Below are positions 1,960 to 54,364 of a stretch of 64,000 nt of DNA, piece by piece. This DNA is from Podarcis liolepis. Lineage: Eukaryota. Location: NCBI GenBank assembly GCA_965112155.1, contig OZ218102.1. One strand, given 5' to 3'. Position numbers and translations under genes: made by a program. The notes beneath the pieces are model-generated. The model had not been told where the DNA came from. It did not search any database and was given only the letters and a program-made list of their open reading frames with translations. Each line of letters opens with the position of its first letter. The stretch's first letter is position 1.

Positions 1960-2050
1960 TAATCTTTTAAAGCCCTAAATAACTTAGGATTCAAATATAT
2001 CAAGGACCGGCTTCTCTCATATAAGCCTGCCTATGCATTTAGATCCATTT
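1960..2050 (+). mobile_element. L2-like LINE ORF2 remnant
   Basis: Translates FKALNNLGFKYIKDRLLSYKP, resembling the L2 C-terminal region. Confidence 0.45.
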
Positions 2051-16971: not shown

Positions 16972-19819
16972 GTAGGTCTTTAGTCCTTGGGAAGGGACCT
17001 TTGGAAGAGGCAGCCTAGTTTCCTCATTACAGAGTGAGGCAGCTAATAATCTAAGGCTGGGAGCCCCCAGATAAAGGGGGTGCATTCTTTCCATGCATTT
17101 CTGGTTTGCTTGTTTTTAAAACACTGAGGTGCTGCTTTCCCAGCATCAGTTCAGCAAACTGAACACAAAAGGCAGTTTCAGGTTGCTCTCACTTTTCACT
17201 GGGGAAATGGAAATAAAATAGATTATGTCCTTAGACTGATGTCCCCCTCCCCACTTTGGAAAGATCCAAACTGCTTTGTAGAACCAGTCAATGTTGAAGA
17301 GCAGTTTTGAGAACCTGGTGGAAGCATTTTCTGAGGAGGCAACGGGGTGCAGAGGGTGTAGATGCCTGTTTAGATCTTGGCCTGTATCTAAAAGTTGAAC
17401 AGATGTTGAACACATTAGATTTAATAAATATGTACCATGCCATATTGATCCTTAATATCAGTCCTGCAGATTTATTTAGTATGTTTACATTGCAGTCTTA
17501 TGCATGTTTACTTGGAAGTAACGCCTACTGTGCTCAATTGGGCTTACTCCCCAGTAAGTGCATTTAGGATTTTAGCCTTAATATGCCACTTTTCAGCTGA
17601 TGAGGTATTCATATGCTCTAGTCATCTCGATTCATCAGAAACAGAAAATCACAATTGTGGTCCAACTAAAATTTCCCATGCCTTTCTTCTACGAGGATGG
17701 CAATAAAAAGATATCCCTGCTCCATGATGAGCTAAGATTCACAATTCCTAAGGACCAATTTTTCCTTAGTTTGCGGACACCTGCCTGATTTGATTTTTGG
17801 TATGTCAAGTAAGTCCAGTGAATGTTCAAGACCCGTCTTTGCTCAGATTGTAGATGTGCTTTCGGAAGATTTCTTAGGATGCGGAGAATTACAGTTTGAA
17901 ACCCATCACATCACATACAGGTTCTGGTCAGGTTCAGTATTCCAGAATCGAGATGCAATCAGTTCAGCCTCATTTCACCACATAAAAAATGCCATTGGCA
18001 ACGGACAGGAGTCCTTGCTTTGTCACTTACTCATTAACTGAGTGGTCCTTTAGCCTTCCAGTGGGTTTTTGATGTGGCACTCAGTTGGTTCTTGCATTTC
18101 CTTGTCTCTCTTCCTGATGGTTCTGTAAAACAAAAGCTTGCCTTTCTTTGAAAGAGCACACCTTTTAAATGAAGATGGAGAAACATCGCCATCTGCTGGC
18201 TAATGTTCCATGTATGTATAGTAATTCATCCATTCCCAGCGAGCCAACTTCTGTTGCTTTTTTGAAGAGAATAATTGCATTGCAGTGTGTCCCCACCCTC
18301 CACCCTGTACAGAAATCCTACTTGTTCAACCAAGGGTTTCCCCCAACACTGTCACCATGTAAATAAGTTTCCTATGTATAGGGCTTTCCTTTCCCACACT
18401 GCCAGCATGTAATGTTTTGTTATTCCAAGTTGTCAGTGTGTGAGAGAGACTAGTGAAAAATCCAAGCCTGCCCACTAGTACTGCCACCACCCCTGTTGGT
18501 CCGCCCCCCCCCATCCTTAGCCAAGGGAAATTCATTTTTTTTCTGGGTGTCCTTGGGATTCACACAGACAAGAGCCAAACAGTTTATTTACTGTCTTTTG
18601 AGCCTCCAACCTACAAATCACTCAGCCAGGTACAAGATGCCGAGACGTACTTACTCTAAGAAGCCACCCAAGGTTAAATGCACAAATGTTTGTAAAAATA
18701 AACATGAGAACCCAATACCATGGAAGGTGGTTAATAAAAGGCTTAGAATGTAAAGATACCATTGGGAATTCAAGTACAAATAAAAAATAACAAAGCTAGC
18801 TTGTCTCATTCTCTATTAGGGTCACAGACCCCACCAACAAGCTGAACCCAGGCATATGTGGTTGTTGTTGTGATTCACAAACAACATCCGAATGGGGGCC
18901 ATCAGACCCAGGCCAAAGACCAGTTTTTATCAGAAAGGCAGAAGGGTAGCTTTTTCAATTAACCAATCAGGGCCTAGGAGCATCTTTGCCCGGCACCAGG
19001 GGGTGTATATGCTGAAAGACCATGTAGCGACTCAAGAGGATTTTTGCACAGTCATTGCAACCTTGATGTGATCTTGCATCAGGCAAGATGAACTAATTAA
19101 ACAGGACTTCTCCCCTCAGTAAGACGGTTCTCAGAATCCTGAGCAGCAAGCCATTTAAAAATGAGCCAAAAAGTCCTCCTTTCTGCTCTCCTTCAGTTAA
19201 CCACATATGCTATAAGTCATGTATTTTGAAGAAGTATGTTCTCACCTGGCTGCTTCTATTTTGTAGTAAAAACATTCATGTTTGTGTGTCTAGATTAGGG
19301 TCCCGTCCTGTTTTTAGTTGCTTGATTCTGAAAGTGCCCCTTTGGGGGTAAGTAGAATATGGGGCAGTTTTCAGCAGTAAACCAGCATTGGGCATTAAAT
19401 TGCATTAGGCCGCTTTTTCACCAAAATAAAAGTAGCCAGGTTAAGCGTGTTTGTTTAAATGCATGAATAACTTGAGCTCAGTGTAAGGATGCGTTCTCGT
19501 TGCCACCTCAGAGTGCTGTGAAGCCCCACCCACAAGTTTCACATTGCCTTCGGCATGGCTTCATTAGTGTCAGATGGGTTTCTGTTTGTGTACACACCAG
19601 AGGGTACTGCCGAGGCAGGGATGTGTTTACACTATGCAAAGGCGCACGTTAGTGTGTTGGCGTGTCACACGAACGCTCCGCCCGCGCTCCTCCCGGGACT
19701 GGAAAGGTTTAACTTCCTGTTTGCTAGTAAAACTGAATTACTGTGTTGCAAAATGATGCAAATCTTTGAATTACTGTGTTGCAAAATGATGCATGTACAG
19801 TGGTACCTTGGGTTAAGTA

Positions 19820-20038
19820 CAGTGGTACATTGGGTTACATACGCTTCAGGTTACAGACTCCGCTAACCCAAAAACAGTGCTTCAGGTTAAGAACTTTGCT
19901 TCAGGATGAGAACAGAAATTGTGCTCCGGCGGCGCGGCAGCAGCAGGAGGCCCCATTAGCTAAAGTGGTGCTAAGAACAGTTTCAGGTTAAGAACGGACC
20001 TCCGTAACGAATTAAGTACTTAACCTGAGGTACCACTG
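19820..20038. mobile_element. MITE family A (opposite orientation)
   Basis: Same TIRs and TA TSD. Confidence 0.85.
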
Positions 20039-20289
20039 TATAAAAAGTGTGTCACCAACATAAAAAGTTGGGAAAGCTCTCGCTTAGGGACTCCTATTGA
20101 TGTGAAGCTGGGGTGAGGAACAATGTACCACATGGATATGTATAGACGCACACATTTGTACAGGATGCATATGCATTTTGGATAAAGTTGTGTAAACTCT
20201 TGATTAAAAACCCAGCACTGGAAACACAATGAGTTCACAGTAGATGAGAGAGCCTTTTCCTCCTGTAACATAAAAGTGCTGGAGACTAA

Positions 20290-23148: not shown

Positions 23149-24411
23149 TAAGTGAGCTTAGATGTATATGTCATTGTCAAGCTATTACTAACAATTACTT
23201 TTTCTCGGAAATCTTAGCTAATGATATCAGCATTACAATAATGCTCTACAATCTACTGTGAGTTTTTACACAATCCATATTTGTGGTTCTCTTTCATGGT
23301 TCTGCATTTTTTGAGTGGCAAACTTGGGCAAATCTTTTTTTTATTGATTTTCATTTGTTTTCCCCAAATTGGTCACTAATTAAAACAAATTAAATTAAAT
23401 TAAAACAAATCAACATTTTCCCAAATCTGAACAAATTTAACATTTTTCCAAATCTGACTTCCTGCACGCCCTCCTGGATGTGTGGATGGTTCTCCTTGCT
23501 GCTGCATCATATTCCCCAGTTAATTTCAAACATTTCGAACAACCTTATATTACAATATACTTGCCACTTGAATAGCAAATGTTAGGGCCTGCCTCCTAAC
23601 GTTGCTGTAATACTGCAACGGTGCTGTAATACCGCAGTCTGACACCAGCTGCCGCTGTAGTGCTTTTTTTTGCATCAGTATAGATGGAGACAGAAACGGC
23701 CCTAGAGCGGCAGACCACTGCGAAGGAGCAGAGACAGATCAACTGGGCAAAGAATGGCTTCCAGAACAGCTGGAAGTGCAGCAGGGCAATGCTCCCCTGT
23801 TCTCTGGGACCAAAACCTATTACAGACCCTGAGAAAGTGAGGATAGTTTGAATGCAGTGTAAAGGGGCTGCTCAGAGTGTGATGGGAGGCGTTTTTAGCC
23901 ATGTAGATTTCAGTACCAGTGTTGTATATAGGTGTCTGGAGATGACATAGGTGGCCTTAAATAGGGAAAGGGCAGGAGTGCACACAGAAGTTTCCCTGGC
24001 TCCATTTGAGACTTTCCTGCATTCAACATCAAAGAGGGTTTTTCTGTGGGGAGGACCTTTGCACTTAATGTGGACTGGTTTGAGGTTGAGCTGGCATTCC
24101 AGCGGGGAGGGGGATGTTGGGTACCTGCGCCTCCATTTATAGCCTGAATGCCAGAATAGGCCTTCAATTGTACACTCAGTGATGCATGTGGGACCTAGGC
24201 CAACGGGAGTCTTTGACTGCATACACCTGTGGCCCTCCAGGTGTTGTTGGCCACATTCCATTGGCCATGTTTGCTGGGCTGATGGGAGTTGGAGTCCAAC
24301 AGCATCTGGTGCCCTTATCCCTGGTGTCCACCGAAGCAGAGAATTTTGGAAACGAGTTCAAGCCTCTGTTTTCTCTCTCTTCCCCCTTCTCCCCTTGGGT
24401 CTTCTCAACAG

Positions 24412-24645
24412 TGACAGGTTAGCGCTGCTTCAGGTCCGTACAATCCTCCAGCAGCTTGGTCTGAACAGCACCTGTGATGACAGTATCATCGTCAAGACGG
24501 TGTGCGGCGCAGTATCAAGGAGGGCGGCTCAGCTGTGTGGAGCCGGGATGGCTGCCGTCGTAGACAAAATAAGGGAGAACAGAGGCTTGGACCACCTGGA
24601 TGTAACGGTGGGCGTCGATGGTACGCTCTATAAGCTTCACCCACA
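24412..24645 (+). CDS. HK1: Hexokinase-1 exon 17
   Basis: 234 nt; [17 protein letters not shown]...[14 protein letters not shown]. Confidence 0.96.
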
Positions 24646-25275
24646 GTAAGTACTGGGAAATTATGAGCTTTTGCTGTCTGGGCTCCGGGAAACAAAGATA
24701 CCAAGTGTCTTAAAGCTTTGTGAAAAGCAGTGCTTGGCTTGTGAGAGATTGGGGATGCTCTGATGAAATAGCCAAGGGAGCCTTTTCTCCTAGCCTGCAT
24801 GTTTTGTGGCTTACTGTGTGCTCGCTTAATGAGTAGTCACTGTGTACTCCACCACTCTTTTGGGCTTGAGCTTATGTTTCACTGCAGACTCCATAGGCAT
24901 AGGTTAAGGATAAGGGGTTTCTAATTCTCATTTCCATAAAAATGAATGGACTCAGATGAATATTTCAGGTGCATGCCTTATGGAAATGACTGCGGATGGG
25001 TGTGTGAAAACAGTGAGAAGGAATTCCCTTTATATCACAGCTGCTCCTTGCTTCCTTCTGCAATCTCCTGCCACTTTCTTCTGTAAAGTCTGCATGTTGA
25101 GTGTCTGGCTCCGTTCACTGACATAAGGAAGGCTTCCGGTTTAACATGGAGGAGCATAAGAAGAGCCTGCTGGATCAGGCCAGTTGGACACTGTTCTCAC
25201 AGTGTCCAACCAGATGCCTGTGGGAAGCCTGCAGGCAGGATGTGAGCACACAAGCTCTCTCCTTTCCTGCAATTT

Positions 25276-25407
25276 CATAGAATCGTAGAGTTGGAAGGGA
25301 CCCTGAGGGTCATCTAGTCCAACCCCCTGAAATGCAGGAAGATGCACGGGGATCGAACCTGCGGCCTTGGCGTTATCAGCACCACGTTCTAACCAACTGA
25401 GCTATCC
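25276..25407 (-). mobile_element. tRNA(Ile)-derived SINE with the same CR1-like tail
   Basis: Reverse complement: GGATAGCTCAGTTGGTTAGAACGTGGTGCTGATAACGCCAAGGCCGCAGGTTCGATCCCCGTG + tail. Confidence 0.75.
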
Positions 25408-25552
25408 GTTTCCAGCAACTGGTATTGAGAAGCGTTGCTGCTGAAAAGAGAATGAAACCTGCTTGGTAATCTTGAGACCTTATCGTGATTATGGACTGGC
25501 AGAGAGAAGCCCTCCCTCACATTTCCCTCCTTTTGTTTGTTTCCCCCCACAG

Positions 25553-25697
25553 TTTTTCAAGGGTCATGCACCAAACGGTAAAGGACCTGGCCCCCAAGTG
25601 CGATGTGACATTCCTTCTCTCCGAAGATGGCAGTGGCAAAGGGGCTGCCCTCATCACTGCTGTGGGATGTAGACTGCGTGAGGCTGAGCATAACTGA
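25553..25697 (+). CDS. HK1: Hexokinase-1 exon 18 (terminal coding part, TGA stop)
   Basis: 145 nt; [47 protein letters not shown]. Confidence 0.96.
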
Positions 25698-28225
25698 ACT
25701 CTGCACCACTGGCTCATTCTGCCTTCCGAGCACTTCCTTGCGAAAAGCAGCGGTTCCGTAGTCTGAACTGGCAAGAGGGGAAGCCCAGAGTCCCACTGCT
25801 GCTTTATGGAAGCGTTGGAGTTAAAAAATAAAAATAGGATACTGAATAGCGTGTGCTGCTGTTGCTGATAATATTTCCCTCCTCTGAACCCCTTGTCTGC
25901 ATGTGTCTTTTTCTGCCCTATTTGGCACATTCCCCGTGTGTAAATCATTCAAAGGAGGAAAAAAGGAGAACCTATAATTTAAACAAATGTCAAAAATAGG
26001 TTTATTATTTGAGGTCTAAAATTACAGCCAAATGATGTCCAAGGAGAAGAGCAGGTGGTTCTGTGTGTCAAGTGTATTATTTCCAGCTGCTACTACATCC
26101 ATGTTAAATACATATACCACCAACAGTGCTGAGTAAGAGACAAGTGCTTATGCTAAGAGGGCTTAGCAGTTCTTTTCCGAATTTCTAGCTAAATGTTTGA
26201 TTCCCCGCACCCTTTTCCTTTCAGACAACTTTGGAGTTTTCACATCTGCTGAGCTGCACTCCGTTCTCCTGTAGCAAGGTCTCCTTTAGCGGCCAGAATT
26301 GTCTCCTGCTCGCTGTATTCAGTCACTAGGAAAGAAATAAGGGGCTCTCCCGACGTGTCTTAATATCACTGGCTTTTCCCGCTGCTTTGGTGAATGATGT
26401 CGTGTTTCCAAGTAAGATTTGTGCTGTTCCAAAAGGCAAGTCTGTGCTAGTAAAAACAAAACAAAACCAAGAGAAGGATTGACCCCAGAGATAATCCAAA
26501 CCTCTGACCGTAGAGCTATCCATAGCTTTCCATGTACCCTTCCCTTGGTTTGGCTAGATTCTGGTGAGTTGAGGATGTTAATTTTTAAAAGGGGAATCCT
26601 GGTCTCCCTTCCTGCTCTGAGAGCCACTTCCAGTGTAATGAGCTGAGTTCACGGACTGCCTTTGTGTAGCAATTGTACGAGTGCTTGCAATGTGGGAGTG
26701 ACATGGCTGCAGGTTATCTAGGGGAGTTCTGGCAAGTCCACGGCATGTATTTGCTTCTGGAAATGTTCTGCCACACTGCAAGGCCAACACCATTCCCAAC
26801 ACCTTTGTCCACCTGCCAAAGCTGGAGTTAACCTGGCTTTCTGGCCTGCCCAGGCCTTTGGCTGTGAGCCTTTGGCTGCTGTGACTGGGAAGCTGCCCTT
26901 TTAATTTTCCCACAATGCTCTTGTGCACCCAATGTAACATTGCCCCGGAAAGTGGCGGACAAATTAAAATAGCAGGCAGCTTCCCAGACACAGCTGCTGC
27001 CTCCTGGTATGTCCATATGTATGGGATGGAATGGATGACCTGAGTGAGCAAAGTGGTGTTTGGGTGCTTTGCTAGGGAGCCCTCTAATCTGCATTAACGG
27101 CTAGTTTCCACATGGCAGCGCTCACACGAGTGCTTTAAAAATTTACACTCTGAGTCTAGCTAAATAATAGGGAAAGGGGTGGAATGAAATGCATCCTAAT
27201 CGCCATTAACAGTGGGTCCTATAGAGGCCAAAACCACACTGATTTTTAATGGAGCTGAATAATGCCCCTGATGTTTGGAAGTATATACCTTTCCATGTGG
27301 ATTTAAAAGTGACATTAGCTTCAGAACCAGGCTTTTAAACAGTGTTGTTTTTCTAGAAAAAGGTGCTGGACTCACCATGAACGCCTCCCTTGTTCTCTTG
27401 GAATGGCAATGGCGCCCACCTGAGAAATGCTGGAGCTAAGTTCCTGCTGGAAAAAAACCCCTGCTTTTAGATGCATAGATAGCAGCAGCATCTAACGATT
27501 AGATGAGTAAAGTTTCGAGGAACTGTCCTTGTGTCAATCCACATAGGGTGTGGAGCAAGGAACTCCAGGGTGCTTGGGAAAGCATTGTGGGCAAATAACA
27601 CCAAACTAGCCTGCTCCAAAGGTGCCTAAAGCAAGGAAATTTCCAGCATTGGGACTAGATTCAGCTAGACTTGCAAGTCAAGCCAGCCTGCCACTCAGCA
27701 AATAGAAAGGGCTGGCAAACAGTGATGTGGGATGCATCCTGCCCCCCCCCCCCACTCCCCGGTTATTTACCTTTCCATGGATCCCCCTGGTTTGTTAAGA
27801 TTCGTAGTAACAATGCATTTGCCCATTGCAAATAAGCCAAGCTTAGCAGATTCAAATCTTTTAGCTTTTTATTATTATTATATTATTAAAATAAATGCAA
27901 GTAAAATAAGCATGCCAGATTATAGCCTTGCGTGAAACTTTTTGGTGCAAATTAATTTATGCAAACTTGCCTAATTTGCACAGAAAAAAAATTGCCATCG
28001 CACACAGACAACCCACATCACCTTTCCCTTCCTATTTGGAATTGCACAAATAGAAAATTAGCTAGCTTGTCTTTTAAGTTTGGTTAGCCTGCAGTTAGTT
28101 TTCTGAACAGCTGCCGCAGAAGCGACCCACTACCATTCTAGATCTTTCTGTTCTCTGAAATATGAATTGTTGTTTGTTCAACTAAATACCACCATTGGCC
28201 AGAAGAAAAGAGATTTGCAGACTTA

Positions 28226-28484
28226 CCGTATTTTTTGCTTTATAAGACTCACTTTTTCCCTCCTAAAAAGTAAGTGGAAATGTGTGTGCGTTTTATGGAG
28301 TGAATGCAGGCTGTGCAGCTATACCAGAAGCCAGAACAGCAGGAAGGATTGCTGCTTTCACTGCGCAGTGATCCCTCTTGCTGTTCTGGCTTCTGAGATT
28401 CAGAATATTTTTTTTCTTGTTTTCCTCCTCCAAAAACTAGGTGCGTCTTGTGGTCTGGTGCGTCTTATAGAATGAAAAATACGG
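28226..28484. mobile_element. MITE family B (CCGTATTTT TIR, Tc2/pogo-like)
   Basis: TA|CCGTATTTTT...AAAAATACGG|TA. Confidence 0.75.
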
Positions 28485-30134
28485 TATTTTTCTTCTCTGC
28501 TCCTCAAGATTTGGATTCCCCATGCTAATAAGCATTTCAATATGCATTTTGGTGCACTGTGATCGAATGTTGTGTGGTAACACGAGTCACAAGCAGTAAG
28601 CTCAGCTTTAAGTGTGTGCGTGTGTGTGTGCGTGTGTGTGTGTCTTCCTGAAGATCTGCATGATTCCCTGGATTTGCAATGCTAGAAAGTCTTTTTACAT
28701 TGCACCACTAGTAGCAGCAGTACTTACTAGTGCAAAGTGAATATTTGTGACAATATTAAACTTTTTTTGACGTGTGTTGGTGTTTGGTGATTCTTTCTGG
28801 CAAAGGAATGATTGGTGCTTTGGAGAAGGGTGGGGAAGATCCCTGTGTGTTTTAAAAGCAATGGAAACAAACTGGATATTTCCTGAGAAATGTTTGCCTC
28901 TAGCAAATGTTTCTTTACACAACAGTGTTAAAATGTCCCACCAGATTTCAGCCTTGGGTTGAACACACTTGCACACCTTTTTGACACAAGAACTGCTACG
29001 TGTTGTGTCCTTGAGTTGAATGTCTGATGGTTAATATTCTATGGGAAAGCGCGTCTTGGTTTTGGAACGGACTTCCGGAACGGATTACATTTGTGAACCC
29101 AAGTACCACTGTATTTGAATTTTTAATGCCAAGATGATGGACTGAAAAAAAAAGATTTGGTTTGGGGTTCCATACAAAATACACAAAGATGAATTTGCAC
29201 TTGTGAATCATGGGCCATAGCACAGTAATTAATAGCCGCCATAAACATAATTCTTCAGTATGGTGAACAAATCATAGTTGCTCGTAATTCTTATCAGAAA
29301 TGTATTAACGATCAAACTATTTCGAAATATCTTAACTTCCACCTTGATTCAGATAACGAATGCTGTTGTCAGTGTTTTACTCAAATGACTGAATATGGTA
29401 AGTCTTTTACTTTTTAAAGTATTTAAAAATAATATGACAATGCTTTACATTTTCTGGGGAAAGGTGTCATTTATGTATATGCCACAAGGAATGTAATTCA
29501 ATCAGTTAAATGTGCATAACAACTGGCCGTTGTTCACCAGACCTGATGGAGACGGTGCACATAACTCTCCAATGAGGAGGGAATTGTGCAACAGGCCTTG
29601 GAGAATTGTGCATATTTTGGCTGAATTTTGTACATTCTCCAGGCAAGTTGCACATTCTCCAGTCAGCATGTACAGTTGGGGGGGGGGAATGCCCTTTTTC
29701 TATTCTGAAGTATGCAATCTGCTCTGTGTGCTCCACAGTCTATCTTGGACCCCCAAAACTGGTCTGTTGCCATCAGGTGCCATGATGGATGCTGTCCCAT
29801 AGCCAGCATTGAAATAAGATTCAACAGCTAGTCCAGTTGGCTTCTGTACATGAAATAAGGAGGTGAGCCACCTTGTCCTTTGCCTCAGGCAGTGAAATGT
29901 CTTGGGTCGGCCCTGTGGCTTTCCATAATAGTATGAGCGTATGGCATTGAGATTATTTTCAGACACTAAGACATTCAAGCAATAACACTGATGGAGGAAT
30001 TGATTGGTTGTGTTGCTGGTATGAAGCACTGCAAAGAATACTCCCGAATCTGTCACAAACCTCTGTGGTAATATTTTTAATCAGCAATGAAGAAACACAA
30101 CAAGAAGTTATTAATCAAGCTATTGGCAAAATAG

Positions 30135-30333
30135 TCAAACGACCAAATACATGGTACTTAATGGTACATTGTCCATATTGGTTGTCTGTGTTCCTGTGCT
30201 TGTCAGGTTGTTAGATGCTTGATCTCTCCAGGTCTTCTTTAAAGGCAATCGGGGAGTAAGGTTAAGTCTGTCTCTTTCCGTTGCTTTGATGCAAGGGCAG
30301 CACTGGAAAGCTATCTTGAAACCAGAGCGGAAC
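30135..30333 (-). CDS. TACR2: TACR2 exon 5 (helix 8, C-tail, stop)
   Basis: cag|G TTC; FRSGFKIAFQCCPC...MYLVV*; total CDS 1143 nt = 380 aa. Confidence 0.9.
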
Positions 30334-31408
30334 CTGTAAATGGGTGCAAACACAAGCTAAGTGTTACATGGTATAAATGAGGGATGGAGAATCTCATACT
30401 TGAGGGATTCCTCAAGTGTTTTGTCTGGGTGGACTGTGTCTTTGTAGGGTGACACCTCTTGCCTGACAGGGTGGAGAGATAAATCTGTATAGAAATACAT
30501 GACGTGTGTGGTCGATACCAAAGCACAAGTCACATTGGCTGTTCTGTCTACTTTTGCCTCTGACCCAGCAACCACTAGCATGTGACCCCCACCCCCCAGT
30601 ATGTAGTCAGAAAAAGCTCCCCATCCCTTGTACAGACTGAGAAGGTAGAAATTCTGCAAAACCCATTATCCATGAGGATCTTGCCATCATGTATGCAAGA
30701 GTGCAGCCTCTCCCCCAAACTGGTAAGAATCAGTTTAGGAGGAACCTAATGGCCAATTGCTTGACAAAGGCACAAGGAAGTCTCCTCATGTACAGCAAAA
30801 AACTTGGGTTGAGTAAGTGTTTTCAAGGACTATGGTTGGGTGAGAGAAGGTGAGGTGCTGAGGTGGCAGAAGGTGGTTGGCTAGAGAATGAATGGTCAAG
30901 ATGATGTATATTTCCTTATATAGGGTGTGTGCTCTCACAGACGCTTTTGTACTCTGTCCCGTAATAAATTATTGAATAAAGTCTGACGAATGAGGAATTT
31001 TGTGTGAGCCTCCGTATTGAACCCCCAAAGGAAATTTTCTCTTCAAAGAAAAATGGACTGTTTCCCTGATGGAATACAGAGGCTATCAAAGGAATGTGAT
31101 GCACATTTAGAGAAAAGCGCTGTTTTTGTGGAATCTAATAATGTCCCTGAGAGTAAGCACCATTGAACTCGGTGGTATTTGCTTCAGAGCGGGAATGTAA
31201 ATGATTGCATTGTAAATGTTAGAGGTCAAGCTAAATATGATACAAGGATAAGCCCTGAGTGTAGGCCACACTGAGCAAAATGGGCCAATGATCTGAACTG
31301 GTATAAGACAGCTTCCTAGGTTCCTATATTTATATACGAGCATTTTTATCTTACACTTCAGTGATACTCCCAAGGTGCTTGCATTCATTTAACACGTGCA
31401 CTACTCAC

Positions 31409-31605
31409 TTTTGATTAAGGCAGCAATAAATAATTGGGCTATACATCGCAGAGCTCATGGCAAGCAAAAACACCGCCAGGTATACTTGTTGAATGTACTT
31501 CTGCCTGTAAATGTCTTTCCGGATGTTCCCCAAGACGAAGTACAGATGATAAGGGAACCAGCAGATGGCAAATGTGATCACGACTGCAACCATTGTCCTG
31601 ACAAA
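31409..31605 (-). CDS. TACR2: TACR2 exon 4 (TM6-TM7)
   Basis: 197 nt; [23 protein letters not shown]...[29 protein letters not shown]. Confidence 0.94.
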
Positions 31606-32037
31606 CTAGAAAAAGGAAAGAGAAATCTTTGAATGCTTTGTCATTCTTCTGGTCCTAGATTTGTGCCTGTGGTGTCAAAGAGGCTGCCACCCATTTCTCG
31701 TGAAATACAGGCTTAGGGTGGGTACTCAGCAAGTCTGTGATGCGTTTCTGTGCAACAATTTGTGCCTGGAGTTTCTTATGAACCAAACCAGACAATATGT
31801 TAAATGCATAGTTATATTAATGACATGTTTCCTCATCCCTGCAATATATAGTAGTAACTTGTTTATAAAGGCAACTGTGGCTGTGCAGAATGCTGCTGTG
31901 ATAATGTTGCCGCAAATCCCAGAAACATGCACTTTTTAGGATTGGAAAGTGACAGGTGGTGACTATTCAAGTTGAACCCCCTTAGCTTGCAGTATCTTGC
32001 CCTACTTGTTTGCTGCCAATGTATATAATGTTGGTTA

Positions 32038-32422
32038 TTGGGACGCAGGTGGCACTGTGGTCTATACCACTGAGCCTCTTGGGCTTGCCGATCAGAAGGT
32101 CAGCGGTTTGAATCTGTGTGACGGTGGTGAGCTTCCCTTGCTCTGTCCCAGCTTCTGCCAACCTAGCAGTTTGAAAGCACACCACTGCAAGTAGATAAAT
32201 AGGTACCGCTATGATGGGAAGGTAAATGGCATTTCTGTGTGCTCTGGCTTCCATCATGGTGTTCTGTTGCACCAGAAGTGGTTTAGTCATGCTGGCCACA
32301 TGATCCAGAAAGCTGTCTGTGGATAAACACTGGCTCCCTTGACCTGAAGCGAGATGAGCACCGCGGCCCATAGTCACCTTTGACTGGACTTAACCATTCA
32401 GGGGTCCTTTACCTTCACCTTT
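32038..32422 (+). mobile_element. Full-length Sauria SINE with 14-bp TSD
   Basis: tRNA-like head (GGTGGCACTGTGG...GGTTTGAATC), ACCTTT-type tail; TATAATGTTGGTTA at 32024-32037 and 32423-32436. Confidence 0.85.
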
Positions 32423-32748
32423 TATAATGTTGGTTAGAGGCATCATGCTGTAGTACCTATCCAGGACAGCAGAGGGCATTTGCTTAGATGGTAATTTGAA
32501 AAATCAAGACTACGCATTCCCACAAACTCTGCACCTAATGCGCTCCTACCATTGGTTTGGGAACAGGTATTTGTCATGATCTGTACCTATCCTGTTGTTT
32601 TTTAAAGAAATACTGCATACACAGTCTGAGTCTTAGCCGGAGGTGTGTCTGGTCTGTTGTTCTTGCTGATAATGAAACTATGCAGCAGTGAGATTTACCC
32701 CTGGGTTCATGTTACCACTGCAGCAATTATTAGCTCACGACAACTAAC

Positions 32749-32905
32749 CTTTTTTTTGGCTGTAATCATATGCTGGTAGCTGAGCACATTAGTGTGATCT
32801 CCAGGAACAGCATTATTCCACAGAGCCTTTCCTATTGCACTGTATGTGATAAACATCACTAGGAGAGGCAGCAGGTACACCAAAACAATGACTGTGATGT
32901 GGTAC
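32749..32905 (-). CDS. TACR2: TACR2 exon 3 (TM5, ICL3)
   Basis: 157 nt; YHITVIVLVYLLPLLVMFITYSAIGKALW...AKKK; frame continuous with flanking exons. Confidence 0.93.
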
Positions 32906-33108
32906 CTGGAAAAAAGAGAAAAAGAGCTGAGCATGGATAGAGCTTGCTTCCCTTCCTTCAGTCCAAAAAGAACCTCCATGTATTGGGAAGATCAATAAAT
33001 GCTTTTCTGCCTGAGTTTCCAAAACTTTCCAGGGGCCAGTGGTTTCCAGGGCAAGAGTGGCCAGAGCAGTGAATGTAAATGGTATCTTTGTACACTGGGG
33101 TAGTTTTT

Positions 33109-37595: not shown

Positions 37596-39230
37596 GTGTG
37601 TGAGATAGACCAACAATCTGATTTGGTACAATGCAGCTTCCTATGTTCCTAACACAACTTGTGCAACAGTACTTGTCCTGTTCAATTGATATATTGTCTT
37701 GTCGATTCTTAACTTTTGCACCTTTGAGTGAATCAAAACCCAAACAAAAAATATTAGCTTCCAATTACTTACTGCCAAGTTACGACAGCCTCTTTGCTTG
37801 GAAGATCTGTCCGGAGCTTTTGCAGAATGTATAGAATAAATTTTAGGAGTGCCAACTTTTTCTGGCATGGCTCCTGTGTCTTAAAAAGCCACATGACAAG
37901 CAGAAGTTTAGCAGGCAAAGCTTCCCCACATTTTAACCGTGTAGGGAGGAAGATAACTTCATCCATTTGTCACACATGGCGCAGGGAAATCTGGCACCCC
38001 TAATCCAAACAGCAAGAAATGATGGCTTGTTTTTGTAAACTTTTCCAAGGGAGATAAATGCAGCCTACCTGTTTTCCTGAGAAATCTTTTATGACTAGCA
38101 GTAGTGTGAAGGGAAGAAAAACAGAAGAGGCAGCCTCCCAGGCAGGAAAAGGTGGCAGTCCAAAAAGCTGAGCTGAGGCTGGTGTAAGTCTCCGAAAGGG
38201 AGCATTCTGGGGCATGGTGGGGGCAGGACCGGGAGGGTGGGCCTTAGGCTGGATCCTAAGTAGATTCAGCCTAGCTACGTGACCTGGCAACCCAGCACAG
38301 AACGCTGTTTTAAAGACTTGTTTTTCCTCTGCCAGACTTAGGCAGGGCAGTAGCATCCGCCTAGCTGCTGAATGGGATTTGGATCAGGTGTAACTTCATG
38401 CCAACTTTATTTCCACTGGCTTTCTTTACACCAGCTTCTTACACATAGGAGAGCTCCCTAAAGAGTGGTGCAGTCTAGTTATGGCACAAACCTTGTGCTT
38501 TATAAAAATGGAAGTTCAACTTTTCCTACGTAACTAATAAAAATAAAAAAGGCATTAGTTTTATAAGTTCTTCCCCAAGAATCCCAAAGTGGGAGATGTA
38601 GAGAAAATAAACTGATCTGGAGGACTTTTTTTTTTTAAATAAATTTGTGGTAAGCTCCGGACTACACAATGCATCTGTTACCAGCAGCCGTTGACTTCGA
38701 GCCGGAAAAAGCTACTTCTATTAAAGTCATTAATCTTTCCCAGAAACTGATTTATTTCTGTTTTCATGATTGACTACTACTGTCTACCCCACCAAGGACT
38801 AGGCTTATCTGCTTAATAGCACATATTGCTTGCATTCTGCAAGTGTGGATATATTTGGGTTGTAGTGGCTGATTCAGGTTTGTGAAAAGGGAACCCCTAC
38901 AAGCCTGCGTTTTGCCCCATGAGCAGTTTGGCTTGCTTTCTGAACAATGCTATGCATGGCTGATTCCACATTTGATATTTGCTTATTCCTCACTCACCTC
39001 TGCCTCCTGAAAGGAAATGTCTGCACAGTTCTCTTTTCTTCCTGTTCAGGTTTTTCTTTCTGTGGCTGACAGTGCAACCCTATTAGTAAGCCCCAGTTGA
39101 GTTTAGTGGGACTTATGATACTCCCAAGTAAGTCTATATAGGCTGGCAGCCTTGTATTGGTCCTTCCCTCCATTTCTTTCCACTTGTGCAAATCCAAGGG
39201 TTCACCAAAGCACACAGAGACCTCCTTATA

Positions 39231-39456
39231 CAGTGGCACCTCGGGTTAAGAACTTAATTCGTTCTGGAGGTCTGTTCTTAACCTGAAACTGTTCTTAACC
39301 TGAGGTACCACTTTAGCTAATGGGGCCTCCTGCTGCCGCCACGCTGCCGCTGCGCGATTTATGTTCTCATCCTGAAGCAAAGTTCTTAACCCGAGGTACT
39401 ATTTCTGGGTTAGCGGAGTCTGTAACCTGAAGCGTCTGTAACCCGAGGTACCACTG
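39231..39456. mobile_element. MITE family A
   Basis: Same TIRs and TA TSD. Confidence 0.85.
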
Positions 39457-40622
39457 TATGCCATACCGACAATATGCCAATTGTCTCACACCCTTGGACT
39501 CTATTGTTACTAGGAATATAGGAACCACGCAGACACTGAACATAATGGGGAAATAGTGTTTTACATCTGGTTAAAACTTGGGAGTTTATGAATTCTAAAT
39601 CAATTTGAACACAGGAGCTACACTGACATAATTTAGTATTATTTGTATTTTATTATTAAATAAATATCTGATGACTAGTACGTTGGGTGTTTCCCAGAGG
39701 TGACTTTTGTCCTGTTGACTCTAAGTGAAAGATGTTTCTGAACTGGTAGGATCTTGCTAACTTGTCCTTTTTTTGACAAGAGGAAACGGAACCTAATTTG
39801 CATTGTCCTCAGAAATAAGGCATTCAGATATTTCCTGTATTGTAGGTTATGAGTCACTGTCTGTAAATGATGTGTGAACAAGGACTCGGTGTAACACTAA
39901 ACACTAAAACAAAAACAGATAAATAAGAAGGTCAAGTACTGGTATATTTGTAAGTCTTTGCTGGAGATTAAAAAAACCTAGGGAACAGAATGGGACTTTC
40001 AGAAAATGATCAAGATAGTAGAAGCTATGTAGCAGCCCGCTGAAACTTCTGTAATATCGCCTTTTTGATTTGGTAGTGATAAACAATTTCCATAAAGTTT
40101 AAATTACCATAATAGGAATGGACGGCCTTTTTGTGTACTGTGGAGTGATTCCCTGCTGAATTATAAGACTCAGCCAGACTCTGCTATGGTTGAAAAACAC
40201 ATTTAACCTTTGACTTAGGGATCTGCTTTTACTCTGTTACATAAGCTCTTTGATAGCATGAAGGGGCAGTACCTGGGTCTACTGGGTACCAGGCTGTGCA
40301 GATTTCAGCAGCTTCAGAGTGTAGCCCCTGATGTAGGCATCTTAAAGGAACCAGATGGAGCTGTTTGGGAGCTGGTGGTATGCACATGAAGAAGGAAATG
40401 GATGTGTTTTACCAGTGAACCCTTTAAATATTACATCAGTGCAAAAATAATAATTCAGGATCAGAATATAATGCCCCCTTTGTTAATTATCCCATGTTCC
40501 AAATGCAAGTTCCAAGTCATAGTATGACAACTTGATTCTGGCTGTATTTAGAAGTGCTGTGTGTGTGTGTGTGTTCGTTCCCAGGTATAGGACTGTTCCC
40601 CTTGACTACAATCTTAAACATA

Positions 40623-40827
40623 CTGTATTTTTCATCCCATAGGACGCACCGGCCCATTCTCCCGCGGGCTCCCAAGGCTTGCTGGTAGCTTCCTGAAGCC
40701 TGGAGAGCGAGAGGGGTCGGTGCGCACCGACCCCTCTTGCTCTCCAAGCTTCAGCGAAAGCCTGCATTCAGATTTCCCCTTCATTTTTGGAGGGGGAAAA
40801 GTGCTTCCTATAGGGCGAAAAATACGG
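40623..40827. mobile_element. MITE family B relative
   Basis: TA|CTGTATTTTTC...GAAAAATACGG|TA. Confidence 0.7.
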
Positions 40828-41104
40828 TACTTACTAGAGAGTAAGGGTGCAATTCTATGCACGCTTACTTGGGAATAAGCCACAGTGAACACAAAGGGGC
40901 CTACTTTAGAGTAAACATGCATAGGATTGTGCTGTAAAACTCAGTGAGATCTACTTTTAAGTAAATATGCCTAGATTTGTAAAAATTCAGCTGCTTTTCC
41001 AGTTTGGTTAGTATAACTTCTTTCAACCCAGCTTTTACAAGTTAACCCTTTAAAAACAAATAAGAATAGGATAACAAAATTTAGCTCAACTTCAAAACTC
41101 TTAC

Positions 41105-41499
41105 CTCTCAGCAGCAAGAGCAGTCATAGAATAAATGCTCACAAACATTGCCGTAACAGGAATAAAGTTAAGAAACCGACAGAATCCCTCACCGAAATAC
41201 CAGACGTTGTGGCTGGCATAAATAAAATTGAACACTGTGTTCAAGGCAGTCATTAGCAGGTCAGAAAAAGCCAAGTTAACAATAAAATAGTTGGTAACAG
41301 TCCTCATCCGTTGGTGAGACAAGATAATCCAAATGACAGTGCCATTGCCCACAACCGATACGATGACTATGAATAAATAGGTGATAGCCCAAAGTGCTAT
41401 TTGCCAGCCAGGCTGAGAAAACGCGGTCTGGTTGACATGGTCTATGGAAATGTCATCCACTGAAATGTTGCTTATGTTTGAGGAGGACATTGTCTTCAT
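41105..41499 (-). CDS. TACR2: Tachykinin receptor 2 (NK2 / substance-K receptor) exon 1, TM1-TM3
   Basis: [10 protein letters not shown]...[12 protein letters not shown]...[30 protein letters not shown]...[10 protein letters not shown]...; donor AG|gtaa; 395 nt; lies between HK1 and TSPAN15. Confidence 0.94.
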
Positions 41500-42810
41500 A
41501 ACTTTCTTCAGCTCACTGTCGAAAACTGTGTGAAATGGGATTACTTTCTTACAGCAGTCCTAGCATTGTTGCTGTGAACTTGCAGTTTGGAGATCTTCAG
41601 AACACGACACACTGACTTTGATGTGCATCCCACATTCAGTTTACAGATCTTCCGTGCACCACACAATGGTTTTCCACAGGAAGCGATTACAGCTCTTCTA
41701 TGCTCATATCCACCACAAATCCATTTGAATATCTGCTGGTGTTAATGACCAACAGAAATATGCAGAAGATCTGTGATAAGAAGAATCTTCTTAAGAATCG
41801 AAGTGTCAGGTTATGGTAACTCTGTTAAAATGTGTTGTTTTTTAAAAAAGAAGAGATCAAAAGATATCGCAGCATGGAGTTGCTGGACTTTAATTCTCCC
41901 TTCCTTAGTAACACTGAAACATTTCGGAAGCAGTCAAACAGGCAAAAAAAAAATCTACAGGCTTAACGAGAATTGAAAAGAGGTGGAGAGGCTAGAATAT
42001 ACAATAGCTAATGAAATTCAATTTCGTGACGCTGGAGTTCCACCCCTTGCCCCACGTTTTTGTAGTAATCTTCATAGCTCTGTTCCTCTCAGGTTTAAAG
42101 CGAAGAGCGTCAAAGATTTTACCCTATTAGGGCCAAGTCATTTATCCTTTGCATATCCACAACTCACATTTAATTTGGTGAGAGTTTCACTAAGAACTTG
42201 GCCTGCAGTGTGCCATAAATATTATTAGGAGGGTTTGCGACAACAGTTCCAAAGCAACTATACAGAAGACAGTAAAAATGTATTCAGGATTGTGAAATCC
42301 ATCTCCTGCTGACTGCTGTGAGAGCTTCACAGAAGCTCACACATTGGACTGTGAACAGTGGCTGGGAGCTCAACTGCTGTGAACCATATTCTGCTCAGAG
42401 GTAGTCATTTTCATCCTAGGAAAATATCCCAATCTCAAGAACAGCCTTCCTGAGAAGGCTCTGTGAAGCACAAGGGAATGCCACAGGAAGGAAATACCGT
42501 TTCCCCCCACCCATATAAGCATAAGGGCTTTCTGCCTATGCCCAGGAAGTGGTTGCTTGGATCCCATACATTATTTTCTCCTAATAAAATAGTATTTTAT
42601 TGATGCAGTGAGTTGCCTTCAAAGTGTCTTAAAATATGCCTAACTTATCTATGACTACTATTTATTCTTATTACTATGCCTGTATAGTCTAAAACAGTTT
42701 CCTGAGATGTGCCCATTTATTTTTTTCAAACTTTTAAGTAATTTGCATCACACAGGGAACCATCTCTTTTACTGTGTATTTAAAACTTCGGTGGAAATTC
42801 TGAGATTATC

Positions 42811-43032
42811 CCAGTAGCACCTTAAAGACCAACTAAGTTAGTTCTTGGTATGAGCTTTCGTGTGCATGCACACTTCTTCAGATACCTGAAGAAGAATCTG
42901 AAGAAGTATCTGAAGAAGTGTGCATGCACACGAAAGCTCATACCAAGAACTAACTTAGTTCGTCTTTAAGGTGCTACTGGAAGGAATTTTTTATTTTGAC
43001 TATGGCAGACCAACACGGCTACCTATCTGTAA
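42811..43032. mobile_element. Penelope-like non-autonomous insertion with inverted arms carrying hammerhead motifs
   Basis: 75-bp arms at 42811-42885 and 42906-42980 (1 mismatch); CTGAGATTATCCCA duplicated at 42800-42813 and 43033-43046. Confidence 0.75.
42906..42943 (+). ncRNA. Minimal type I hammerhead ribozyme motif (mirror copy at 42848-42885 on minus strand)
   Basis: GTAT-CTGAAGA-A-GTGTG-CATG-CACAC-GAAA-GC-TC-ATAC: stem I, CUGANGA core, stem II, GAAA, palindromic AGCU helix III, UC site. Confidence 0.6.
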
Positions 43033-45190
43033 CTGAGATTATCCCATTGCTCTGAGACTACCCTTAAAATGTAGTTAGATTTCCACCATATTTAAACTGG
43101 ATTATTCAAGTCTGTTGAGAAAGCAACACAGGAAAAACCTCCAGTAATGAAATAGCTAGCATGCCACAGGTGTATAAGCACTATTTCAAGGTTGTTTTGT
43201 TCAGCATCTAAAATCATGTAGTCTACTATGTGAAAGCCAAAGTTATGAATCCAAGCTCTGACTAGTGTGCACTATTGCCAGAAGACTACATCTAATGTAA
43301 CCTGTAGCACAAGACTTTGTTTTAAACCAAACAGTGTCCAACCTTGAGTCAACATTGTTTCACCTCAAGTTCCCCAGCTACTTATTCATATCAGTACATT
43401 TCCATATATCAGTTCACCTGTGCAAGTGTACCTATAAAAATTCCTGGCCTGCAAACATTTTACTAGCACATGAAGTTACGGAGCCTTAGTTTCTATGCTG
43501 GCCACAGAGGAAAGGGAATTTCTTCTTCAACCAGTATGGAAATGTAGGCTACTACTAAGCCATGTAGGCAAGCACCAACCACCCACAACAGTCAATTGTC
43601 TTCTACCAAGGGGTCTGGCGCAGGTACAGAATAGTACTGCATGGAATTCCTGGTGGCCTATGGTGACCAGGCAAATGGTTAAATACAAGGCTGGATTTGA
43701 TTCAAGTTCTTCTCTCATGTTTCTTATCATCAAATACTTTCTGCTAGAGACACTTGAACATCTCTCTAGACGCTACTTATAGAAAAAGGGCCACTCTGTA
43801 TACTGTAGAACAGAGGCAATTTAGTTAGTGCTCTCTGCAAAATCTCCTGTCTGCCAAATGTGCAATTATTAACAGGGACATTATATACCGTTACCCTAGG
43901 ATGAGGTAAAAAAAGTACCGGACTATTTGAGATGTCCCAGCTTTATTGAAGATGCGCTTTAAACCTTGGATAGCTTCCAAAACACATTTAAATTGAAGAG
44001 GTTTAAAAGAGCATCAACTCAGAACTGACTTGTGTAAACAAGTCCTTAACAGATAAACCATTTTAAGAATGCAATATTTAAATGTTAATACCTGGAATAT
44101 TCATGTGGAAAATAATCATGTAAGCCATCTTTGAACTTTTTAATGCAGCCTCACATATTCTTGCATAGTTGCATTAAAATTCCAGCACATGAAAAAGGAG
44201 AAGGCTAAAATACATTGTCTATGTGGACAAGGACAGTACTTCATTAGACCCAACTTTACCAGTGACCAGTCAATTTAATGTTATACTGTACTTTATTTAA
44301 ATTATTGTTTTGTAAAAAAACAACCATATAGCATTTCCAAGAGTACTCTGACAAGCTGAATATGTGCAACTACATTCTTTCTGTGTTAGTTTCACAATGG
44401 GAGTTTGATTCTCTAGAAGATGAATAAATATTTACACCGAGTATATATATGAAAGAGATCTGTTCCATTTTACTGTTAGATCCTTATAAGGGGATATACT
44501 TCTCTCTGGCTCGCAGAAAGGTTCTGTTCTGTTCCAAAAGGAAAACATGCTGAAAGGTCACTTGTAGAAAGCCCAATAGACTTCCAGGGAAATCACTATG
44601 ACTTTACATAGTGGTAAACACAGTATAATTTAGCTAGTGATCTTAACAGTTTTAAGATACTCTTCATAAAGAGAGATATAACTAAGAGCAAAATCTATTT
44701 TCTTTATTAGAAAACACAGGGCTTTATCAAAGACAAAGCGTAAGATTACATTGAATGCTTGTTGCAGAAAGCAAGAAAACCTGAAAAACCATTGAAATGT
44801 TTTCATATCAGACACTTTCAGATTTCACAGCTTCTATAATGCAAATCATTTCTCCTCAATTCCTTCATTCATTCGCTTGCTTGTTGGCAAGTGGGCAAGA
44901 ACAAATTCAGCAGTTGTTAGCAGTGTCAATGAGCTATTCTTCCTCAAGAAAATAGCTTTCTTGTGTAGGGCTTAGAGTGAGGCATTTCTTTCTTTTTCTC
45001 AGCTAGCTTAATATCAGTCACATATTCTCTTCATGTTTGCTCAATAATACAGCAAAACAATTCACATTTTTTTCTTGCTAGTTGCCATTGGGAGAGTGCT
45101 TGAACTCACTTTGTGAGTCCTATAGCATCTCCATCCAATATGCCAACGTTAGATTCACAATGCTAGGAACAAAACCGGGACATCTGTATA

Positions 45191-45432
45191 CAGTGGTACC
45201 TCGGTTTACGAACTTAATCCGTTCTGGAAGTCTGTTCTTAAACTGAAACAGTTCTTAAACTGAGACACGCTTTCCCTAATGAGGCCTCCCGCAGCCGGTG
45301 CCCTTCCACTGTTCTGGCTTCCATTCTTAGACTGAGGTAAAGTTTGTAAACCGGGACACTGCTTCTCGTTTTGCGGAGTTTGTAAACTGAATCATTTGTA
45401 AACAGGGCTGTTCTTAAACCGAGGTACCACTG
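45191..45432. mobile_element. MITE family A, divergent subfamily
   Basis: Same CAGTGGTACCTCGG TIR and TA TSD; diverged interior. Confidence 0.8.
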
Positions 45433-45595
45433 TACTACAATGGAACATTTTTTCTGTTGTTGGTGTGAATGGTTTTCAGCTTATTTGACTCTTGACAATT
45501 GCTCATTGCGTTTGTCAAGAGAAAGAGTGGCACCTTTGAAGGGACGCCCACTGATCACAGTCACACCAATTCTCCAGTAAACAAGACAAGCGGGG

Positions 45596-46119: not shown

Positions 46120-47100
<981 letters not shown>

Positions 47101-52040: not shown

Positions 52041-52753
52041 TAAGTAGGAGTCTACTTGTAACCTGAACTTGATGTTTATAAAACTTATTTTGATCTCTAT
52101 TCTGTAAACAGCTTTAAGACGGCTTAGCTAATAACTTCCTTCTTTGGATAAATAGCAGAGAGAAAGGAAAGTACAAGATGGATTCTAATTTAACCACTGT
52201 AATCGAAGTTGTCAAAGGCAAACGCTTTACTTTAGTGGCACTTAATCATGGTTTTAGAGAAATTGTGGGTGTAACTGGAAAAGCCTGCTTAAACAAAAGT
52301 AAGATTTATGTAAGAAAAATGCAATGTAAATTCAGGCATACAAAATGTTTTTATATTTAACAAATATTTAACATGTGTTTACATAGCTTGATGTTAAAAG
52401 CCGTCAGGATAAAATATTTTCATTCACAAAATGTATTTACTTATTATTTAAACTGAAGTCCATTGATTTACTGCCTCCAGGTTAGCAGAGGTTTCTTTCA
52501 CAGCATGTATGCTTGAACTTTCTCCATCTACATGGTGTTTTTTTAATGTGTCATATTTTTATATAACGTATTTATTTATGAAAAGAGCCCTTTGATCTAA
52601 AGTAGCACCATGATTCCTTTTGGGGTAGAACCAGCGATCGACATTTTCACATCAACAGTAAAACAATCAATATGCGTAAAACAATCAATATGCAAATTAA
52701 ATTTAGAGCAATGTTGAGAATGAAAAGTAAACAGCAAGAATTCACTAACACTA

Positions 52754-52958
52754 CAGTGGTACCTCCGGTTAAGAACTTAATTCGTTCTGGAGGTCTGTTC
52801 TTAACCTGAAGCCTCCCGCTGCCGCCATGCCGCTGCTGCACAATTTCTGTTCTCATCCTGAAGCAAAGTTCTTAACCCGAGGTAATATTTCTGGGTTAGC
52901 AGAGTCTGTAACCTGAAGCGTATGTAACCTGAAGCATATGTAACCTGAGGTACCACTG
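52754..52958. mobile_element. MITE family A with internal deletion
   Basis: Same TIRs and TA TSD. Confidence 0.85.
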
Positions 52959-53468
52959 TATTGGCCTCTGGTGGGGTGTTCCACTGCCAATCTCACGTAT
53001 GCACGTGAATTGATGATTACAATATTAGAGCAGCCCACTCGCTCTGCAACACTCAGTCAGATGTTTATTAAAGCTGACCAAGAAGACGAAATGCAAAGTA
53101 TAAAATACAAAACCACAGCCTACATGAAGCCAATGATTTTAAAATGACAAGCTCAGAACTAAGAATCATAGCAGGCCTATGAGACATTACAACATTCGGA
53201 AGTCTTGCCACCTGCTTAATAATAAACGTATTGATCCCCTCAAGGAAGAAACTTGGAAAATTCTCTGAAGATCAGTTAGGAAACTGTTTCGTAAGTGAAT
53301 ATATTGTGTGCAATCTTCTGATAAAATGACAGAAAAAGAACTGACCCTTTTGACCTCTGAGAGGTCATACAGAAAGCATCTGCCTAACTAAAGGGAACTA
53401 AGTTTTGAAGTGAAACATTAAGATGGGCAAATCAAATAGCTGTTCTGTACTTTGGCACCTAGCAACTA

Positions 53469-53682
53469 CAGTGGTACCTCTGGTTATGTACTTAATTCAT
53501 TCCGGAGGTCCATTCTTAACCTGAAACTGTTCTTAACCTGAAGCACCACTTTAGCTAATGGGGCCTCCTGCTGCCGCCGCACGATTTCTGTTCTCATCCT
53601 GAAGCAAAGTTCTTAACTCAGGTACTATTTCTGGGTTAGCGGAGTCTGTAACCTGAAGCGTATGTTACCCGAGGTTCCACTG
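53469..53682. mobile_element. MITE family A
   Basis: Same TIRs and TA TSD. Confidence 0.85.
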
Positions 53683-54364
53683 TATGTGCTTGCATGGTGC
53701 TGGCTGCAGCGCCCCCATGCCACAAGTGTCTCCTTGATGACCAAATGTAACAGGGAGAAAGCCCCTCCCCTTTCCGTTTGCCAGATTGCGATGATTTGTG
53801 TTACCCTTCTAGTGAGTTGCCCTCACCAGCCAGTGCTGCATGTTTCAATTTCAAAGCCTTGTAAATTTATAAAGAAAAAAGGGGGAAGAAAGAAAAATAA
53901 CACCCCTCACGTTAACCACTCAGTAAACTTCACTATATTCAAATGTCTGAACAGGTATCCAAACAAAATGGATTTTGTTTGTAAATAGTATGTTCGAATG
54001 TAGCAAGGGCAATGGTCTTTGGTCCATTGTGTAATAGAGTCTAAAACATGAGTGCTGCACAGAACACAAGAGAGGAGGATGAAGGCGGCTTGGGGACCTG
54101 ACTGGTGCCACAGGTCTGCCTTCATCTCCTGTACTGTGCTGCTGCTGCCGCCTGCTGCTCATCCTCAGTAGTTGAGAGGCAAGATCATTCCCCGAGGCAC
54201 ATGGGTCTTTGCAGAGTAGCAGTGGCAAGTGCTCCGGTGGCACTGCCTCATCTACAGCAGTTCTAAAAGTTGCTTAATTTCCCTGGAAGTCTTGAGTCAT
54301 GATTTCAGTGCTGAAGATTTTAGATTTTGTATGTTTACGTAATATTTTTGAAATTCTTTTGCAG

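Follow-up and report, generated by a model that had tools for sequence, protein, structure and literature searches.

The inverted repeat between the starts of TACR2 and TSPAN15 is a recent insertion belonging to a very abundant repeat family and is likely a dead-on-arrival, doubly 5′-truncated end piece of an endonuclease-positive Penelope-like element (PLE) whose fold-back was likely formed during its own insertion. It measures 219 bp between the two copies of its target-site duplication and was analysed within a window of 64,000 nucleotides, which is the whole stretch of DNA under study, together with four out of 24 public sequencing runs (DNA runs X1, X2 and X11 and RNA run X23).

Structure and age of the insertion

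The two arms of the insertion comprise 75 nt each, are arranged head-to-head, are 99% complementary and are separated by 20 nt, with the pair 42830/42961 as the sole mismatch (Table 1). The original prediction of arms matching at 74 of 75 positions around a 20-nt loop, with a tail of about 50 nt and a 14-bp duplication on both flanks, was confirmed, the tail being 52 nt long, and its description of the loop as built from repeated core fragments agrees with a spacer of re-copied 12-nt units. The stretch from 42873 to 42894 forms a stem of 9 bp with a loop of 4 nt. Inside the tail the ATG at 43002 shows a good Kozak context and a frame that is open through the end of the insert, and it is possibly the start of a parental ORF. 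The folding energy calculated for the insertion is −154 kcal/mol vs −60.8 ± 4.4 kcal/mol for 200 shuffled sequences (z = −21), none of which reached the same value (0/200). Within the 64-kb window no other copies of the element were found above the level of chance words. The kinds of repeats present in the window suggest that the host is a squamate. Protein matches also verified the proposed location between the starts of TACR2 and TSPAN15, about 1.3 kb upstream of the TACR2 ATG: the first Met of TACR2 at 41499 is 1.3 kb and the Met of TSPAN15 at 46564 is 3.5 kb away from the insertion.

Table 1: Positions of the insertion, its parts and the neighbouring coding regions in the window.
Feature	Position	Strand	Remarks
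TACR2 first coding exon region (substance-K receptor)	41101..41499	-	best hit Substance-K receptor, E 1e-48
Left target-site duplication, 14 bp	42800..42813	+	last 3 nt coincide with the outermost 3 nt of the left arm
Left arm: inverted, tail-less, 5′-truncated copy of the element end (part of the pseudo-LTR)	42811..42885	-	
Minimal type I hammerhead motif	42847..42886	-	C3 is 42881, H17 is 42852, after which cleavage is predicted
Junction spacer of 12-nt units re-copied from the hammerhead start	42886..42905	+	
Right arm: 5′-truncated element end	42906..42980	+	
Minimal type I hammerhead motif	42906..42943	+	C3 is 42910, H17 is 42939, after which cleavage is predicted
One-sided 52-nt tail with length-variable T tract and ATG at 43002	42981..43032	+	
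Right target-site duplication, 14 bp, exact	43033..43046	+	
TSPAN15 first coding exon region, in a CpG island	46564..46662	+	tetraspanin-15, E 1e-10

A young insertion with an empty allele in relatives had been proposed, and exactly such a site was found in two of the three DNA runs, showing that the insertion is recent. In X2 (organism B) contig record 15 connects position 42799 directly with 43033 and includes 500 letters of flank on one side and 518 on the other; the same join is present in record 9 of X11 (organism F), with 500 and more than 500 letters. In both runs exactly 233 bp are absent, corresponding to the insert plus one copy of the duplication, and the 14-bp target sequence is present as a single copy. 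The flanks differ from the window at 7 of 1018 letters in X2 and at 20 of about 1020 letters in X11. X1 (organism A) appears to be filled, but its contig record 8 contains only 22 letters of the element, fewer than the 31 letters required for bridging, and this run may come from the source sample. Evidence for the filled allele is the window sequence itself, and no contig of the runs spans it. The C at 42961, responsible for the mismatch between the arms, is a private change of this copy; the family shows a G in about 99% of the depth, in line with a young age.

Hammerhead motifs and their folding

Both arms carry one hammerhead motif each and both motifs are directed outward. In the isolated motif the conserved core (C3–G8, G12–A14, A15.1–U16.1 and H17) as well as helices I and II are present, and in the plus motif helix III is limited to an AGCU palindrome. 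Helix I has 4 bp on the plus and 5 bp on the minus strand, and the fifth pair on the minus strand comes from the junction, since a different base occupies this position in other copies of the family. The numbering suggested earlier for the two motifs, with cleavage after 42939 on the plus strand and a stem I of 4 and 5 bp, was found to be correct. Within the family the cleavage base varies from C to U in 15–21% of the depth, with U still being a valid UH. A search against Rfam gave no hammerhead match up to an E value of 10 among 20 matches. A known microRNA precursor family was also considered for the hairpin and rejected: 18 of the 20 matches are generic microRNA hairpin models and none of the 20 reached the gathering score.

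Minimal hammerheads of PLE are defined in passages of PMC4209133, which report them from turtle and snakes, describe pairs of motifs on opposite strands 100–700 bp apart and state that minimal monomers are inactive and dimers weak. The motif from the turtle Chrysemys picta bellii (Fig. S3 therein) shares with the insertion the core including an extra A after G8, AGCU replacing helix III, a 4-bp helix I, a 5-bp helix II and a U-rich 5′ flank. Comparison by eye revealed one compensatory pair in each helix, with GCAU/AUGC in Chrysemys vs GUAU/AUAC in the insertion for helix I and GUGGG/CCCAC vs GUGUG/CACAC for helix II. In contrast to Chrysemys, the 4-nt loop II of the insertion turns stem II into a perfect 14-nt palindrome and the cleavage base is a C. 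In that figure the Chrysemys motif is shown without a mark of linkage to a PLE or an ORF (PMC4209133).

For the isolated motif pairing probabilities of 0.76–0.88 for helix I and 0.96–0.98 for helix II were predicted. Within the full element (−147 kcal/mol) both helices were predicted at 0.000, i.e. below 0.001, and the predicted probability of helix I dropped to 0.001 even when spacer, right arm and tail were folded alone. The two motifs were predicted to co-fold via the palindromic stem II and not via AGCU; an active hammerhead fold in the natural context, with a stable or dimeric helix III, did not appear in these models. The original prediction had also proposed that RNA from either strand could switch between self-cleavage and a long double-stranded hairpin. 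This switch is unsupported because the hammerhead helices are below 0.001 in the full hairpin, and in a read-through transcript of either strand the antisense arm is the first to be made. Such RNA would rather form one 75-bp duplex in which the ribozyme is blocked and which would attract editing by ADAR. Also read ends showed no pile-up in X23, one fragmented RNA library that offers a weak test.

Family, origin and alternative readings

The summed contig depth on the element is roughly 1e6 vs 10–42 on the flanks. Ratios of element to flank depth are 24,000–66,000 overall, 34,000–55,000 for the arms and 24,000–33,000 for the tail end, which lies below the arms in all three DNA runs; these ratios are no copy numbers and can be read only as an order of 1e4, giving a family of roughly tens of thousands of copies. 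We observed 223 distinct joints, and each of the 15 listed skips a different stretch across the centre. Fold-back copies are therefore widespread and turn at differing points, with centres in contigs of all three DNA runs. Some centre joints, such as those linking 42863 with 42906 or 42885 with 42923, recur in several runs at summed depths of about 20–90 single-copy units. The spacer has a depth of 500–5000, which is less than 0.3% of the arm depth; the centre of the TACR2-side copy is thus rare and the spacer a product of the junction. Similar re-copied units are found in a small number of further copies, with 8, 16 and 15 contigs showing them at 42895, and four RNA reads carry a longer insert. 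Moreover, 226 RNA reads extend upstream of 42906 (agreement 0.82) and 136 extend behind 42885 (agreement 0.78), and the loose ends on both sides have one common sequence, of which 30 letters are visible. As many copies run further upstream of helix I, the insertion is a truncated piece, and the earlier idea of a fixed mobile unit of about 220 bp is not supported in view of the varying turn-back points, the rare centre and these longer copies.

Five of six PLE features were found, namely the minimal hammerhead, the inverted truncated copy, the one-sided tail, the target duplication with its empty allele and the longer parent. The proposed assignment to Penelope-type minimal hammerheads and their layout is supported by the likeness of the motif and by the described structure of PLE insertions: passages of PMC8557442 and PMC3846280 report an adjacent inverted truncated copy, a one-sided tail, a target duplication and palindromes at the inversion junction. 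The truncated insertions in Fig. 2 of PMC8557442 and Pen2a_Av in PMC3846280 show a head-to-head inverted pseudo-LTR with a hammerhead as found here. In comparison to the insertions described in these passages (PMC8557442; PMC3846280), the tail is 52 nt vs the 30–40 bp quoted in PMC8557442, the target duplication is 14 bp vs a type of 8–10 bp, and both copies are cut to 75 bp, leaving neither an ORF nor a full pseudo-LTR.

The family sequence that precedes helix I on its upstream side has a pyrimidine tract followed by CAG at its end. In Drosophila virilis Penelope an intron likewise ends at helix I (part of PMC4209133), and in rotifer elements pseudo-LTR and tail contain the first codons, comparable to the tail ATG at 43002, which lies behind the T tract (part of PMC3846280). 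By analogy, both the tract with CAG and the tail ATG lend support to the PLE reading but do not prove it.

No RT/GIY-YIG gene linked to the family was found in viral, metagenome, prokaryote, phage and protein searches, all of them in collections without the host genome. Pattern scans listed 0 and 4 loci in viral contigs, 0 and 0 in metagenome contigs and 0 and 40 in prokaryote genomes (about 139 expected by chance), and all 44 listed loci were rejected as chance matches of only 18–31 nt to the tail word, the best one (L027) lying among bacterial genes. The same applies to two phage records found by blastn (39-nt matches), and when the 33-aa frame that includes the tail ATG was compared with proteins, all five matches were to unrelated repeat proteins. 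The supplement of PMC8557442 contains no matching nucleotide consensus. In the literature we found no description of the family using its motifs, Neptune/turtle hairpins, Neptune/Anolis hammerheads and reptile Penelope hairpin microRNAs as queries; Repbase and Dfam, which lie outside this search, probably list it. The family may resemble turtle Neptune-type repeats.

A model for the formation can be derived from PAc, a Poseidon element of Anolis carolinensis. According to passages of PMC11167929, cutting and extension take place on both target strands in PAc, the tail is the stretch separating two RT start sites, the hammerhead requires protein for cleavage and is dispensable for insertion, and public reads contain no RNA ends at the site of the cut. 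The tail between two start sites and the extension on both strands resemble the origin that we infer for the insertion. PAc differs in that its ORF begins in stem II (PMC11167929), whereas the corresponding frame of the insertion stops at 42951 and the sole good ATG is located in the tail, and thus the two represent separate families. By analogy to PAc, an RT/GIY-YIG protein would nick both target strands 14 bp apart and each nick would prime reverse transcription on the element RNA, at the far start site for the tail end and at the near start site for the arm end. Both cDNAs would stop at the first base of hammerhead helix I, i.e. its 5′ edge, and be joined head to head, slip-back re-copying of 12 nt would leave the spacer, and the palindrome of 9 bp with its 4-nt loop would mark the join, with the hammerheads being passengers from the parental pseudo-LTR. 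We slightly favour this route with two primers; the main alternative, a single cDNA snapping back on itself, is somewhat less likely.

Other readings of the hairpin are considerably weaker. It could be a non-autonomous mobile unit in which a PLE enzyme acting in trans copies the entire fold-back RNA, so that stubs would give rise to further stubs, and indeed some centre joints recur in more than one run and non-autonomous PLE derivatives are described (parts of PMC8557442 and of preprint 10.64898/2026.07.22.740005). We regard this as unlikely, since the 223 joints differ, the centre of this copy makes up less than 0.3% of the family depth and the arms differ by a single private change. Recurrent joints can also result from microhomology at the palindromic stem II, and the non-autonomous forms described in the respective passages are head-to-tail and not fold-back (PMC8557442; PMC7229834; preprint 10.64898/2026.07.22.740005). 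Among the latter, non-LTR retrozymes are small, non-coding and PLE-related with type I hammerheads like the insertion, but differ from it by their head-to-tail arrangement, canonical motifs and circular RNA (passages of PMC7229834 and preprint 10.64898/2026.07.22.740005). This class was rejected, as it needs head-to-tail tandems of 150–450 bp with canonical type I motifs and the insertion shows one head-to-head minimal pair. Quite improbable is also a far-reaching version in which the stub represents a self-propagating class of non-coding reptile retroposons copied whole by a Penelope enzyme: the hammerhead would be held off by its antisense arm until ADAR editing or an element protein opens the duplex, tens of thousands of hairpins would make Penelope the dominant hyper-edited repeat of lizards, and the 12-nt units would record a telomerase-like addition of repeats by the PLE reverse transcriptase at the 5′ terminus of the template.

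A MITE or Foldback-type DNA transposon with hammerhead-like words arising by chance would also be short, non-coding, of high copy number and equipped with a long inverted repeat, and MITE-like elements with central palindromes are present in the same window. Nevertheless, the inverted repeats are not flush with the target duplication, a 52-nt tail is present on the right, the arms vary in their inward length, copies extend further upstream and the motif shares its core and compensatory pairs with the turtle hammerhead (part of PMC4209133), making this origin highly improbable. Least probable of all is an artefact of the assembly or a fold-back chimera. Although no contig of the examined runs spans the filled allele, the exact 14-bp duplication matches a single-copy empty site, the arm mismatch is private, the tail is one-sided and fold-back centres occur in all three DNA runs.

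RNA of the family, neighbouring genes and meaning

RNA of the family was seen from both strands in X23. This run was obtained from one tissue of organism F; RNA and DNA runs are from different individuals. As the TACR2-side site is empty in organism F, any editing signal in X23 belongs to other copies of the family. Among the changed places in X23, 56 of 104 are A>G or T>C, compared to 17/57 in X11 (p = 0.005), 11/39 in X1 (p = 0.008) and 15/43 in X2 (p = 0.046; all p values vs X23). The excess is weaker when transitions only are considered (p = 0.045, 0.11 and 0.21 for X11, X1 and X2, respectively). Calculated per base, 56 of 132 A/T places are changed in X23 vs 20 of 90 C/G places (p = 0.002). 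At 42957 (UAG) reads of one orientation show an A>G change in 167 of 412 cases and those of the other in 2 of 287, and it makes up 0.2% of the DNA depth; at 42968 (UAA) the numbers are 151 of 445 and 4 of 368 reads with 0.008% of the DNA depth. A few expressed copies bearing genomic changes could imitate such a signal.

The double-stranded RNA of the family is likely a substrate of ADAR. The proposal that the hairpin is such a substrate thereby finds support at the level of the family, through the strand-specific A>G changes in X23 and the known hyper-editing of Penelope. Passages of PMC5625713 name Penelope as the LINE that is massively edited in lizard, and also describe a palindromic Harbinger repeat of Xenopus of about 200 bp that folds on itself and is a target of ADAR without a neighbouring copy, as would be the case here. 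The explanation by a palindrome is given there for the frog repeat and, in these passages, not for lizard Penelope (PMC5625713).

With its position 1.3 kb upstream of the TACR2 Met, a DNA hairpin predicted at −89 kcal/mol and family RNA from both strands, the insertion might be thought to influence neighbouring genes by serving as part of the TACR2 promoter or 5′ UTR, as a source of small RNA or as a DNA cruciform. We consider this very unlikely, because the insertion is not conserved and is absent in relatives whose flanks are only 0.7% and 2% diverged. A cluster of TATA-like and CRE-like words at about 42090–42115 on the minus strand, identified by eye, would also put the start of TACR2 about 700 bp short of the hairpin, and a spacer of 20 nt disfavours the extrusion of a cruciform. 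No RNA reads were found on the flanks of the insertion in X23 (0 in 24 of 30 bins), one tissue of an organism with the empty allele.

In summary, the insertion works like a truncated inverted PLE insertion and very probably is one, and it is likely ordinary genomic debris and not a new RNA switch. As a single copy it provides a clean and recent presence/absence marker beside TACR2 and is otherwise of minor importance. The thousands of turn-back junctions in the family preserve a natural record of the starting, stopping and joining of PLE reverse transcription, a step that is still unproven in vitro. Furthermore, self-folding Penelope stubs offer a simple and testable reason why Penelope, according to passages of PMC5625713, is the most edited LINE of the lizard.

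Other repeats and motifs in the window

Besides the fold-back stub, the 219-bp insertion near TACR2, several repeats were found in the window. The two MITE-like elements share related ends, and the six copies of a dispersed repeat, which have inverted ends flanked by TA, are presumably MITE-like elements of the Tc1/mariner type. Two CTGATGA words face inward 42 nt apart at 17597-17638; no full hammerhead was found around them and the pair is likely due to chance. By eye, TATA-like and CRE-like words are located at 42027-42113 (minus strand); they precede the first Met of TACR2 by about 550-600 bp and are a candidate core promoter.

Repeats identified in the window
Feature	Position	Description
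MITE-like element	40620-40832	internal palindrome of 62 nt, 94%, at 40693-40754
MITE-like element	28225-28480	internal palindrome of ~71 nt, 79%, at 28325-28395
Dispersed repeat, ~250 bp, n = 6	2549-2798, 19783-20043, 39219-39460, 45179-45451, 52750-52963, 53465-53686	
Inverted pair, 87 nt	5542-5627 and 6071-6157	91% identity, 443 nt between

Tail and upstream sequence of the family

The tail of the stub contains an ATG with a good Kozak context, whose frame is open up to the end of the insert (43002-43034) and which is possibly the start of an ORF of the longer parent element. A protein search with the frame through this ATG (33 aa) gave chance matches only. Immediately 5' of helix I of the hammerhead motif, family copies carry a pyrimidine tract followed by CAG (loose ends before 42906), resembling a 3' splice site, and in several joints, the turn-back junctions of family copies, the long arm extends 1-3 nt past helix I.

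Centre of the stub

The centre is formed by 2.8 copies of a 12-nt unit (42886-42917) that covers helix I and the start of the core. In each of the three DNA runs a minor fraction of the other copies of the family has similar units, and four RNA reads show them as well. The 12-nt units may be a trace of repeated re-copying of the template 5' end by a telomerase-related RT.
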